Below, one piece after another: positions 1,966 through 14,620 of a stretch of DNA of 64,000 bases. Numbering within the stretch: the stretch's first letter is position 1; each line of letters begins with the position of its first letter. The notes under the pieces were generated by a model. It made no database searches. It saw nothing but the letters and a program-made list of their open reading frames with translations, and had not been told where the DNA came from. The stretch comes from Escherichia coli. Lineage in GTDB: Bacteria; Pseudomonadota; Gammaproteobacteria; Enterobacterales; Enterobacteriaceae. The position numbers and the translations under genes were made by a program. Location: NCBI RefSeq assembly GCF_013122565.1, contig NZ_CP053258.1; one strand, written 5' to 3'.

Positions 1966-2571
1966 CTACTTTAAGCCTTCCGCTGACAGCACGTCTTGTA
2001 CTTCCGGACGTTCAGCCATACGTTGCATAAATGCTGCAATGTGCTCTAACCCTTCCAGATTCAGTTTCACCGCGTATGCCCAGCGCAGAACCGTAAACAG
2101 ATAGGCATCAGCAATTGTAAATCTTTGCCCACAGATCCAGTGCTCATCCTTCAGTGCCTCGTGAACATATTGCAGCTTCTTCTCCAGCTGCGCGCGAACT
2201 GTCGGTTTGTACTCTTCCGGTGTATCAGGGCGAAACAGAGGTGTGAAACCTTTATGCAGCTCGGTGGCGATGTAATTCAGCCATTCGATGGTTTTATAGC
2301 GGGAAATACTGTTTACCGGTGCCAGCAACTGGCGGTCGGGGACGCTGTCGGCAAGATACTGCATAATCGCTACGCCTTCCGTCAGCAAAGTACCGTCATC
2401 CAGCAGCAATGCAGGTACCTGTCCCTTAGGGTTAACGGCAAAGTAATCGTCACCGTTTTCGAGACGTTTTTTCATTAAATCCACACTGACGAGCGTAAAA
2501 TCCTTTCCGCTCTCACGCAGGGTGATATGGGAAGCGAGAGAGCAGGCGCCCGGTTTGTAGAACAATTTCAT
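1966..2571 (-). CDS. gstA: glutathione S-transferase
   Basis: 201-aa ORF, recognised Gst sequence. Confidence 0.92.
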
Positions 2572-10504: not shown

Positions 10505-11085
10505 TACAACTTCACCAAACCACTAAAGCCCATAAAGGCCAGAGACATAAGACCTGCGGTAATTAACGCAATGGCATTACCGCGAAAAGGTGCCGGGACA
10601 TCAGCCACAGCAAGGCGTTCGCGGATGGCGGCGAAGAGAACCATCACCAGCGAGAAACCGACAGCGGCGGAAAAACCGTACAGCGCCGACTGCAAGAAAT
10701 TGTGCCCGAGATTGATATTCAGCAACGCCACGCCGAGCACGGCACAGTTGGTGGTGATAAGCGGCAAAAAAATCCCCAGCAGACGGTAAAGCACCGGGCT
10801 GGTTTTGCGCACCACCATTTCGGTGAACTGCACAACCACAGCAATCACCAGAATAAACGCCAGGGTGCGCAGGTAAATCAGATTAAGTGGGATCAAAATC
10901 CACGTATCAATAAGCCAGGCGCAAATAGACGCCAGCGTCATCACAAACGTTGTTGCCAGCCCCATGCCCATCGCGGTTTCCAGCTTTTTGGAAACCCCCA
11001 TAAACGGACAGAGACCGAGAAACTTGACCAGTACAAAGTTATTGACCAGTACAGTTCCGACAAACAGTAACAGGTAGTCAGTCAT
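10504..11085 (-). CDS. rsxA: Rsx/Rnf complex subunit A
   Basis: 193-aa membrane ORF; stop overlaps rsxB start. Confidence 0.9.
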
Positions 11086-11161
11086 TTTTCGGCCTGAAAT
11101 AAAAAAGCCGCCTATTATCCGTTAATCCAGAGCAGGCGACAACAGGTTAACTGTAAGGTTA

Positions 11162-11602
11162 TTACGGATTCACAAACGTCGCTTTTACCCGCGACGAGCG
11201 TTTGAAATAGGGGACGATCAATGCGGTTGCCAACAAAGTAAACAGCAACTGGCGAACGGCTATGCCATCTTCCACGGGTGAAAAAGCGAACGCTTTTACT
11301 GCCAGTAAGACGGAAATAAGCAGCCAGATAATATAGTGTTTAGGAACACAACGCCGACGTTTAAAGAAAGCGATGGTCAACCACAGTGTGTAATACCACA
11401 TGGCGATAGCGGTAATAAAAGAAACGCCCCATAAGATTTGTGTTGTCAGTGCTTGTCCGCCGAGCGTTTGAAATGTTTGCGGAGAAGATAACGCAGCGGT
11501 ATACAGCAACAACGCCAGCGTCGTACTTAACAGAGCGACTAAAAGCCAGGCCAACGGGCCAAGCAACCAGCCTCCAATACGTTGTGGCGTTGTGGTGGTC
11601 AT
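11162..11602 (-). CDS. ydgK: inner membrane protein YdgK
   Basis: 146-aa ORF from ATG at 11602 (MTTTTPQRIGGW...); the track ORF extends upstream to a TTG. Confidence 0.8.
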   Translation of the reverse strand: MTTTTPQRIGGWLLGPLAWLLVALLSTTLALLLYTAALSSPQTFQTLGGQALTTQILWGVSFITAIAMWYYTLWLTIAFFKRRRCVPKHYIIWLLISVLLAVKAFAFSPVEDGIAVRQLLFTLLATALIVPYFKRSSRVKATFVNP

Positions 11603-11687
11603 AGGTTCTCCAGAATAGCGACGCAAACAGGCAAATCTAATTTTAGGGGCGTTATTATAAGGCTTTTATAACCGATCGCTACTTTCT

Positions 11688-11903
11688 TTATTGGACATAG
11701 TGCCAGACGGACTTCGGTACCTGGCCGAGGTCAAACAAACGCCCGCCAGAAACCAGCTCTGCGCGACGGTGATCGGCAGCACGATACATATTGATCAGTT
11801 CCTGATCGTCCGTCAGGGTGTAATTAAGATGGTCGTAGAGTTTTTCCAGACTTTCGAGTGAACTGATTTTGCGAAATTTTAATAAGTAGTCCTGAACAGT
11901 CAT
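11688..11903 (-). CDS. cnu: Hha-family nucleoid-associated protein Cnu (YdgT)
   Basis: 71-aa [15 protein letters not shown]... recognised as Cnu. Confidence 0.88.
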
Positions 11904-12174
11904 AAAAGGTCCATAAAATAATTAATACCAAAGGGGTAGGTATTATTAGTGATGATAAAATTTCACCAAAGTGAACGCTTGTTTTATTACAAAAATAAGA
12001 ATGCGCTGATGGCAAATATTCAGGGATGAAAAACTGCTCTGAAAAGAGTAACGCGCTTTACTATCCCTGACAATCACCAAAAACATCGAACAAGATAATA
12101 AATTCCTGGTTTAATATCCGACAAATGAAAACATGCACCCGGACGAGCAGCATGTCGCTCTACAAGCGCAGAGC

Positions 12175-12300
12175 TTACTTGTGTTGTACCGTAGTACTCT
12201 GTTCAGGTGGCTGATAGTTGTCAATGTGACTCGCCACGCCAAGAAGAATGACTGAAACGACAAGAACGATCCAACCTGTTAATTCAATAAGACGATTCAT
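12175..12300 (-). CDS. blr: 41-aa small membrane protein Blr
   Basis: my manual translation of the - strand gives MNRLIELTGWIVLVVSVILLGVASHIDNYQPPEQSTTVQHK; this ORF is below the track's size cutoff. Confidence 0.75.
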   Translation of the reverse strand: MNRLIELTGWIVLVVSVILLGVASHIDNYQPPEQSTTVQHK

Positions 12301-12542
12301 TACAACTCACATCTCTGTTGATTGATCCATTAACTTCAGGGGGTAAATGTTACTTAGCAATAATAGCTCCAGCAAGATTTTTACTGAGGTTTTTGCGATA
12401 TTTAGCTTTTGTCGTTGGAAAAATCGCTATTTTTTTGACTTAAGTTAAACAACATCCCTTATTGCTGGCAGGTTATTAAACTGTTGAGCGAGGGTAAAGG
12501 ATAGTGTCAAATAGCCATCATACTTCAATGAGAGGCAATGAC

Positions 12543-13583
12543 ATGAGCGACAACATCCGTGTTGGGTTGATTGGGTATGGTTATGCGAGCAAAACCTTCC
12601 ATGCGCCCCTGATTGCGGGCACGCCCGGGCTGGAACTGGCGGTAATCTCCAGCAGCGATGAAACAAAAGTAAAAGCCGACTGGCCAACGGTTACGGTTGT
12701 CTCTGAGCCCAAGCATCTGTTTAACGATCCCAACATAGACCTGATTGTCATTCCTACACCCAACGATACCCATTTCCCGTTAGCCAAAGCAGCGCTTGAG
12801 GCGGGTAAACATGTGGTCGTTGATAAACCCTTTACCGTGACACTGTCACAAGCGCGAGAGCTGGATGCACTGGCAAAAAGCCTGGGGCGTGTGCTGTCTG
12901 TATTCCATAACCGTCGTTGGGATAGCGATTTCTTGACGCTAAAAGGTTTGCTCGCGGAAGGCGTGCTGGGTGAAGTTGCTTACTTTGAGTCTCATTTTGA
13001 CCGCTTCCGTCCGCAGGTGCGCGATCGTTGGCGTGAACAGGGCGGCCCAGGCAGCGGTATCTGGTACGATTTAGCACCACATCTTCTTGATCAGGCCATT
13101 ACGCTATTTGGTTTACCGGTCAGCATGACGGTAGATTTGGCACAGTTACGGCCCGGAGCGCAGTCGACCGATTATTTCCACGCCATCTTGTCCTATCCAC
13201 AGCGGCGAGTCATTTTACACGGTACCATGCTGGCAGCCGCTGAGTCAGCACGGTATATCGTGCATGGATCCCGAGGCAGTTATGTGAAATATGGCCTCGA
13301 TCCACAGGAAGAACGTCTGAAAAGTGGCGAGCGTCTGCCGCAGGAAGACTGGGGCTACGATATGCGTGATGGCGTACTTACCCGCGTGGTAGGTGAGGAA
13401 CGTGTCGAAGAAACGCTGTTGACGGTGCCTGGGAATTATCCGGCTTACTATGCGGCGATTCGTGATGCGTTAAATGGCGATGGTGAAAATCCGGTTCCGG
13501 CAAGCCAGGCAATCCAGGTAATGGAGTTGATTGAGCTGGGCATCGAATCCGCCAAACATCGCGCGACTTTGTGCCTTGCATGA
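12543..13583 (+). CDS. ydgJ: Gfo/Idh/MocA-family NAD(P)-dependent oxidoreductase
   Basis: 346-aa ORF from ATG 12543; N-terminal Rossmann motif GLIGYGYASK. Confidence 0.85.
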   Translation: MSDNIRVGLIGYGYASKTFHAPLIAGTPGLELAVISSSDETKVKADWPTVTVVSEPKHLFNDPNIDLIVIPTPNDTHFPLAKAALEAGKHVVVDKPFTVTLSQARELDALAKSLGRVLSVFHNRRWDSDFLTLKGLLAEGVLGEVAYFESHFDRFRPQVRDRWREQGGPGSGIWYDLAPHLLDQAITLFGLPVSMTVDLAQLRPGAQSTDYFHAILSYPQRRVILHGTMLAAAESARYIVHGSRGSYVKYGLDPQEERLKSGERLPQEDWGYDMRDGVLTRVVGEERVEETLLTVPGNYPAYYAAIRDALNGDGENPVPASQAIQVMELIELGIESAKHRATLCLA

Positions 13584-13618
13584 AAAATGGATGGTGCAAT
13601 TTGCACCATCCATTTTTG
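13583..13618. terminator. bidirectional rho-independent terminator between ydgJ and add
   Basis: perfect 13-bp palindrome atggatggtgcaa/ttgcaccatccat flanked by aaaa and ttttt. Confidence 0.8.
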
Positions 13619-14620
13619 TTACTTCGCTGCGGCTTTTTCTCGCAGTGCGCGTTTTTCCTCAGCGCTGAGGAAAGCCATTTCCAGACCATTAATCTGTGCC
13701 TGGCGGATTTGCTCGCGGGATAACCCAGCAGCTGGCGCGGCAACGTTATATTCGTGAATGATATCCACTCCCTGTACGCCGGGATCGTCAGTGTTAATGC
13801 TGGCACGAATGCCATGCTCAAGGAACGTTTTCAGCGGATGGGCAGCCAGCTCTGCCACGGTGCTGGTCTGAATATTGGAGGTCAGACAGGATTCAATACC
13901 AATTTGTTGCTCGGCGAGAAAATCCATCAGCGCCCGATCTTCAATGGCTTTTACGCCATGTCCAATACGCTCCGCCCCCAGTTCACGAATCGCCTGCCAG
14001 ATGCTTTCCGGCCCGGCAGCTTCGCCTGCATGGACGGTAATATGCCAGCCCGCATCACGCGCGCGGTTGAAGTGAGAAAGGAACAGACTTCCAGGGAAAC
14101 CAAGTTCATCACCGGCTAAATCAAGTGCGGTAATCTGGTCACGGTGGGCTAAAAAGGCCTCTAGCTCTTGCTGACAGGCGGCTTCGCCGAAGGTCCGGCT
14201 CATAATGCCGATAAGCTTCGCCTGCACACCAAAGGTGCGGCAACCTTCACGTACGCCATCGATCACCGCTTCGACAACACCTGCAACAGGCAGCTGATGT
14301 GCCATTGCCATGTAGCCTGGTGAAAAACGCAGCTCGACATAGTGCAGGCCGTGACGGGCTGCATCTTCAATGTTTTCAAATGCCACGCGGCGACAAGCAT
14401 CAAGAGAGGCGAGAACTTTAACGCCCCAGTCAAGTTTGGTCAGAAAGCTCACCAGATCGGGTTCGTTGGCAATGACCTGAACGTGGGGAATCAGTGTTTC
14501 CAGGGATTGTGCAGGAAGCGAGATATTATACTGGCGGCCAAGTTCAAGAATGGTCTGGGGACGAATGTTGCCATCAAGGTGGCGATGGATATCAGTTAAT
14601 GGCAGGGTGGTATCAATCAT
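13619..14620 (-). CDS. add: adenosine deaminase
   Basis: 333-aa ORF recognised as Add. Confidence 0.92.

Follow-up and report, generated by a model that had tools for sequence, protein, structure and literature searches.

Within the 64,000-nucleotide stretch of Escherichia coli DNA analysed here (the window), an open reading frame (ORF) of 41 codons plus a TAA stop lies at 12175..12300. The first-pass annotation, made from the letters alone, had read it as blr, a gene for a small membrane protein, located between cnu and ydgJ. The ORF list of the window shows its coordinates to be exact, and to them we add the strand, which is minus: the start ATG is at 12300..12298, the stop TAA at 12177..12175, and the translation is the 41-aa MNRLIELTGWIVLVVSVILLGVASHIDNYQPPEQSTTVQHK. 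The neighbours are as had been described. Downstream and on the same strand lies cnu/ydgT (11688..11903, minus strand), a 71-aa Hha-family gene, and upstream, in divergent orientation, lies ydgJ (12544..13583, plus strand), which encodes a GFO/IDH/MocA oxidoreductase and has its annotated ATG at 12544. The AT-rich flanks, earlier put at about 270 and 240 bp, measure 271 bp for the blr-cnu gap (11904..12174, GC 0.373) and 243 bp for the divergent control region of blr and ydgJ (12301..12543, GC 0.362); the GC content is 0.502 for the whole window and 0.421 for the blr ORF. The blr-cnu gap contains the 3′ end of blr and presumably also the cnu promoter.

The translation matches the Pfam family PF24673 (Blr_divisome) with 87.9 bits (cut-off 27, E 2.9e-25), residues 1-41 aligning to profile positions 1-41, and the NCBIfam equivalog NF033231 (small_Blr) over its full length with 91.3 bits (cut-off 40, E 1.8e-26). 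RefSeq labels the same ORF blr, with the product named 'division septum protein Blr' or 'beta-lactam resistance protein'. Both profiles, the RefSeq annotation and the gene order across genera agree with one another and support the earlier reading of the ORF as blr, a previously described gene for a small membrane protein. It is a textbook example of how size cut-offs can hide a true gene, and its first description, reportedly in 2000, called it 'intergenic'. Its confirmation shows that a first-pass annotation is able to recover genes of this kind. The significance of the present case is mostly one of annotation hygiene, the gene being already known.

The MG1655 counterpart is b4409 (1704551..1704676), and the gene order add-ydgJ-blr-cnu-ydgK-rsxA holds in the window, in E. 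coli PapRG-04-4 and in MG1655. K-12 Blr (b4409, YP_025303.1) has the same length and the same place between ydgJ and cnu as its counterpart in the window, and the two are identical at 39/41 residues and 124/126 bases; residues 36-37 are Thr-Thr in the window protein and Ala-Ser in K-12. The 1-kb region of the window occurs at an identity of at least 95% in 5424/5426 complete E. coli genomes, where the ORF is annotated blr, and the ORF itself (at least 95% identity, at least 80% of the length) in 5390/5426. No match to the ORF was found in 26 genomes among the 5426 complete E. coli genomes searched. An isolate of K-12 MC1000 (NZ_CM170063.1) carries a scarless 390-bp deletion with a 2-bp microhomology (TA) and a junction at about position 2016 of its locus; the deletion is equivalent to 12114..12503 of the window and takes out blr with its promoter and also most of the sequence upstream of ydgJ. 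With 26 complete genomes lacking a match and the 390-bp deletion in this one isolate, blr is dispensable.

Among the same 5426 genomes, the top match to 11600..12600 of the window reaches only 99.3% (PapRG-04-4, from a baboon in the Gambia), and the blr ORF of the window is 100% identical to that of O157:H7 strains. The strain from which the window comes is probably absent from this set of genomes. The blr-cnu gap has three changes private to the window, namely the loss of 1 bp at about 11968 and two substitutions, at about 11984 and about 11994.

The start codon and the upstream frame

Translation of the sequence before blr reveals a 7-codon ORF in frame with it (12307..12330, minus strand), which would encode MDQSTEM*. 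The codons read ATG GAT CAA TCA ACA GAG ATG TGA GTT GTA, after which comes the blr ATG; the upstream ORF thus stops 6 nt before that ATG, and its final ATG-TGA forms a start-stop pair. The upstream ORF is what remains of an N-terminal extension whose frame is still open in Salmonella, in Citrobacter and in E. coli of the K-12 type. The difference resides in the codon three before the blr ATG (12309..12307), which is TGA in the window and TGG in K-12 (equivalent region at 2522..2545 of locus L007), and in K-12 the frame that is closed in the window continues without a stop to two ATGs (-12 and -30 nt) and to a TTG, a start at which would yield 66 aa. Database Blr entries of 66 and 68 aa are explained by this open upstream frame of the K-12 type. 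Using a 40-nt probe with a 28-nt seed required to cover the variant, the TGA haplotype was found in 399/5426 complete E. coli genomes (~7%), mostly O157:H7, and the TGG haplotype in 4980/5426 (about 92%).

Beyond E. coli, E. fergusonii has TAA at the same upstream codon and lacks the upstream ATG. Every non-Escherichia orthologue with visible upstream sequence keeps an ATG at -12 nt, and in several of them, for example in Enterobacter (locus L005), Ile or Phe replaces the E. coli Met1. The upstream frame is also open in Salmonella and Citrobacter, whose Blr is annotated with 41 or 51 aa, and it holds ATGs at both -12 and -30 nt. Across genera the annotated Blr lengths of 41, 45, 51 and 53 aa are a matter of start-codon choice, the length of the core being unchanged. 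The deposited 41-aa Blr of Enterobacter (L005 2501..2626, GCA_037199315.1) is called from an ATT start; the ATG 12 nt upstream (45 aa, MTSIINR...) looks the likelier start, in line with further entries from Enterobacter and Lelliottia.

That the real protein of the window genome might likewise be longer, with 45 or 51 aa, is what the ATG at -12 nt in every orthologue outside Escherichia, the Ile or Phe found in some of these at the 41-aa start, the open frame of K-12-type E. coli and the 51-aa annotations of Salmonella and Citrobacter would favour. However, the TGA at 12309..12307 leaves the 41-aa form alone unless it is read through, and E. fergusonii, which has a TAA and no upstream ATG, keeps the 41-codon frame under selection. 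We therefore consider a longer protein in the window genome very unlikely: translation in the window can start solely at the ATG at 12300, because of the in-frame TGA three codons upstream.

The 41-aa reading of the window gene does not extend automatically to the remaining strains. The TGG of the K-12 type makes 45- and 51-aa in-frame forms possible, and sequence alone does not settle the N-terminus of Blr in strains of the K-12 type or in the other genera (41, 45 or 51 aa). It is conceivable, if rather doubtful, that the Blr start is evolutionarily plastic and the textbook K-12 length incomplete, with isoform or dosage differences between E. coli lineages; if true, K-12 and the other TGG genomes of E. 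coli, about 92% of the total, could make a 45- or 51-aa Blr. The TGG>TGA change forces the 41-aa form and could couple translation of blr to termination and reinitiation at the upstream ORF. The TGA/TGG polymorphism is a natural experiment showing the 41-aa form to be sufficient for maintenance, and is a mildly useful by-product of the analysis. This start-codon question is the sole point where the blr locus exceeds its textbook description.

Conservation of the frame and its flanking signals

A protein search with Blr retrieved 97 relatives, distributed over Escherichia, Shigella, Salmonella, Citrobacter, Enterobacter, Lelliottia, Leclercia and Intestinirhabdus. When 30 of these, drawn from eight genera, are aligned, thirteen columns are invariant, namely R3, E6, L7, G9, S16, L20, A23, H25, D27, N28, Y29, Q30 and P31. 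The frame was compared at the DNA level between the window and E. fergusonii, Salmonella, C. koseri and Enterobacter, all of which have add, the divergent ydgJ, blr, cnu, ydgK and rsxA in identical order. Pairwise Nei-Gojobori counts for blr give pS of 0.66-0.90, that is, synonymous sites near or at saturation, against pN of 0.05-0.16, and a dN/dS of 0.03-0.08 where computable between the window and its relatives. The differences between the window and Salmonella genes are distributed as 5/3/23 over codon positions 1/2/3, and among the blr pairs third-position changes exceed those at positions 1 and 2 combined by about 2-4 to 1. The blr frame has zero internal stops in all five taxa, whereas each of the other five frames has 1 to 7. 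Conservation in close relatives, on which the first-pass annotation had staked its reading, is therefore borne out: the frame is intact in the relatives compared and under purifying selection, and the blr reading stands.

These data bear on whether the ORF is instead a chance open frame in AT-rich intergenic DNA with no functional product. The inspected 2.8 kb is overlapped by 47 ORFs of at least 20 aa, a chance background, and besides blr the two flanking gaps contain or overlap four ORFs of 40-50 aa; ORF length by itself is no evidence beyond chance, and the Shine-Dalgarno match before the blr ATG is weak. What tells blr apart from chance is its homology (E 2.9e-25 and 1.8e-26) together with purifying selection on the blr frame only. 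Low amino-acid divergence at saturated synonymous sites, the thirteen columns invariant in eight genera and equivalog scores far over the cut-offs all argue against a chance frame, which is effectively refuted by the blr frame alone being stop-free in the five taxa; a tagged Blr protein has, moreover, been handled experimentally (PMC10470546). We regard a chance origin as extremely improbable. Two ORFs that overlap blr, one of 50 aa at 12111..12263 (minus strand) and one of 40 aa at 12133..12255 (plus strand), were ruled out as coding since their frames are stopped in the relatives. A 24-aa Blr fragment labelled Pseudomonas aeruginosa (P0089) comes from a 240-bp contig, and is most likely enterobacterial DNA contaminating the assembly and no real Pseudomonas homologue.

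Phylogenetic footprinting of the aligned ydgJ-blr-cnu interval points to a promoter-like element upstream of blr (12347..12375, minus strand), with a -35 hexamer TTGCTG at 12375..12370, a 17-nt spacer and a -10 hexamer TAACAT at 12352..12347. The pattern of TTGCYG, 17-nt spacer and TAACAT (TAATAT in E. fergusonii) is kept in the five taxa, and the spacer sequence has diverged while the hexamers and their 17-nt spacing are retained in E. coli, E. fergusonii, Salmonella, C. koseri and Enterobacter. These features suggest a weak, sigma-70-like and phylogenetically conserved blr promoter, from which transcription would be expected to start near 12340. A consensus promoter scan returned four promoter-like sites against 2.5 expected, none of them convincing for blr, and missed the conserved element because its -35 hexamer matches at just 3/6 positions.

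At the other end of the gene, RNA folding indicates a putative terminator-like 3′ end (12121..12174, minus strand) consisting of hairpin 1 (12174..12157), which starts directly after the blr stop, and hairpin 2 with its U tract (12155..12121), the tract being UUUUCAUUUGU. The fold has an energy of -24.1 kcal/mol, with a z-score of -1.57 against shuffles, a mild gain over shuffled sequence. The K-12 locus has the same promoter-like and terminator-like elements as the window, and it retains both 3′ hairpins despite three stem substitutions, which exchange Watson-Crick and G-U pairs. These hairpins of E. coli blr were not found outside Escherichia in the genera aligned; in Salmonella and Citrobacter, where they are absent after the stop, a different hairpin occurs about 130-190 nt downstream. 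The plus-strand terminator-like site that the consensus scan placed at 12157..12174 is nothing but hairpin 1 seen from the opposite strand.

Salmonella (L003 2810..2840), C. koseri (L004 2819..2847) and Enterobacter (L005 2704..2735) share a hairpin in the blr-cnu gap that is followed by a T-rich stretch. Its stems show compensating changes, the paired arms being CAGGCGCC/GGCGCCUG, CAGGUG/CACCUG and CAGGCAUC/GAUGCCUG, and in these genera it could serve either to terminate blr or as a leader element of cnu; in the aligned E. coli sequence (about 12030..12055 of the window) the pairing has been lost.

Conservation of the ribosome-binding site, the other check that the first-pass annotation had named, was not found: the Shine-Dalgarno duplex is worth -2.9 kcal/mol in the window, -4.7 in K-12 and about 0 in other genera. 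Being weak and unconserved, it lends no support to the gene, and it is not counted against it either. Rfam models, scanned over 11000..13800 with hits admitted up to E = 1, matched neither gap nor blr. The sole Rfam matches were sub-threshold ones in the convergent region of ydgJ and add, among them one to the Salmonella sRNA STnc390 (13563..13623, plus strand; 30.8 bits against a gathering score of 50, E 4e-4), and this STnc390-like stretch between the ends of ydgJ and add is probably a shared terminator region.

As a short, separately transcribed unit that has structured 3′ hairpins and lies beside a nucleoid-protein gene, the locus might also be read as acting mainly as RNA, whether as a small regulatory or a dual-function RNA, with an incidental peptide. 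Against this stand the lack of any Rfam match on it at E up to 1, and the codon-periodic conservation, which implies selection at the protein level; furthermore, the hairpins and untranslated regions are unconserved beyond Escherichia, whereas the peptide is conserved. Because of this codon-periodic conservation and the unconserved untranslated parts, an RNA-only function is exceedingly unlikely, and we retain the reading of blr as a protein-coding gene.

Architecture and proposed role of Blr

The Kyte-Doolittle profile of the window protein has its 19-residue maximum (2.46) at residues 4-22, and AlphaFold2, supplied with the 30-sequence alignment, gives a single helix at residues 2-27, with block-mean pLDDT of 94-98 across the first 20 residues, and an unstructured tail at 28-41. 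Blr is thus predicted to have one transmembrane helix (about 2-27), preceded by a minimal N-terminus and followed by a polar C-terminal tail of 14 residues. Its best conserved segment is not the hydrophobic core but the junction of helix and tail, A-S/N-H-I-D-N-Y-Q-P-P-E. The core of this segment, H-x-DNYQP, is invariant within the stretch SHIDNYQPPE, and A23, H25, D27, N28, Y29, Q30 and P31 are all present in the window protein. As the most conserved part of Blr, this juxtamembrane motif may well be its functional surface. Salmonella and Citrobacter Blr share the synteny, the helix, the H-x-DNYQP core and the promoter hexamers with their spacing, and differ in the last eight residues.

The net negative charge of the tail, together with the lone Arg close to the N-terminus, favours an N-in/C-out topology. 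Such a topology also agrees with the cleavage of Blr by RseP, which generally acts on type II (N-in/C-out) proteins, and by periplasmic proteases (PMC10470546). A PDB sequence search with the Blr family profile found no solved relative.

Karimova, Davi and Ladant reportedly described in 2012 (J Bacteriol 194:5576) a septal GFP-Blr whose localisation depends on late division proteins, and deletion of blr is said in the same work to aggravate ftsQ(ts) at low osmolarity. The primary paper for the beta-lactam phenotype of Blr is reportedly that of Wong, McMurry and Levy in 2000 (Mol Microbiol 37:364).

Later papers credit Blr, a membrane protein of 41 aa, with increasing resistance to beta-lactams and other peptidoglycan synthesis inhibitors (PMC12429562 and PMC12350097, citing Wong 2000). 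In a bacterial two-hybrid (BACTH) assay it interacts with 7/12 divisome proteins (PMC7648144, citing Karimova 2012), although the DrpB paper cautions that for small membrane proteins such counts probably contain some false positives; that paper also states that no DrpB-Blr interaction was observed (PMC7648144). The role that Blr is thought to have, according to PMC10470546, is stabilisation of the divisome under stress, and the same source reports that RseP cleaves Blr in vivo and in vitro and that periplasmic proteases also cut it. The septal localisation, the late-divisome interaction and the beta-lactam phenotype come from the literature on K-12 and would apply to the window protein by analogy.

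Taken as a whole, the locus is almost certainly the chromosomal E. coli blr, a short minus-strand unit of its own whose helix-and-tail product is reported to be a divisome accessory. The ORF list, the Pfam and NCBIfam profiles, RefSeq, dN/dS, AlphaFold2 and the Kyte-Doolittle profile converge on a coding sequence for a single-pass small inner-membrane protein. We propose that the transcript would run as a separate short unit from the promoter at about 12375..12347 to the hairpins and U tract at 12174..12121, and that translation from the ATG at 12300 would yield the 41-aa Blr with its single transmembrane helix and polar tail. On the strength of the literature and the two-hybrid results, Blr would then be a non-essential accessory component of the divisome that contacts several late division proteins. 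It would stabilise the divisome under stress, and its loss would lead to higher susceptibility to beta-lactams and peptidoglycan synthesis inhibitors, as the literature suggests; Blr would also be cleaved by the intramembrane protease RseP.

A small single-helix membrane peptide that falls into RseP substrate class I with HokB and HokE (PMC10470546) could alternatively be a type I toxin-like hydrophobic peptide, akin to Hok, Ldr, Ibs or TisB, and not a divisome factor, yet this is hardly credible for a single-copy gene at a fixed syntenic site in eight genera, with no antisense RNA family (Rfam, 11000..13800, both strands) and no conserved antisense ORF, with antisense frames that carry stops and give no conservation signal in the five taxa, with a conserved polar periplasmic motif besides the hydrophobic helix, and with a reported loss phenotype of drug sensitivity and not of lost toxicity (PMC12429562, citing Wong 2000).

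As a divisome accessory, Blr finds its closest functional parallels among other small membrane proteins of enteric bacteria. YmgF (72 aa) and DrpB have no sequence relation to Blr, which is the only family that the window ORF matches, but like Blr they are described in PMC7648144 and PMC12429562 as small, non-essential, enteric-restricted inner-membrane proteins with a septal ring location or interaction. MgrB, AcrZ and CydX have other partners and no homology to Blr, itself without a PDB relative; they nevertheless resemble it, on the accounts given in PMC12350097 and PMC10723866, in being shorter than 50 aa, in having one helix and in acting by binding a larger membrane partner.
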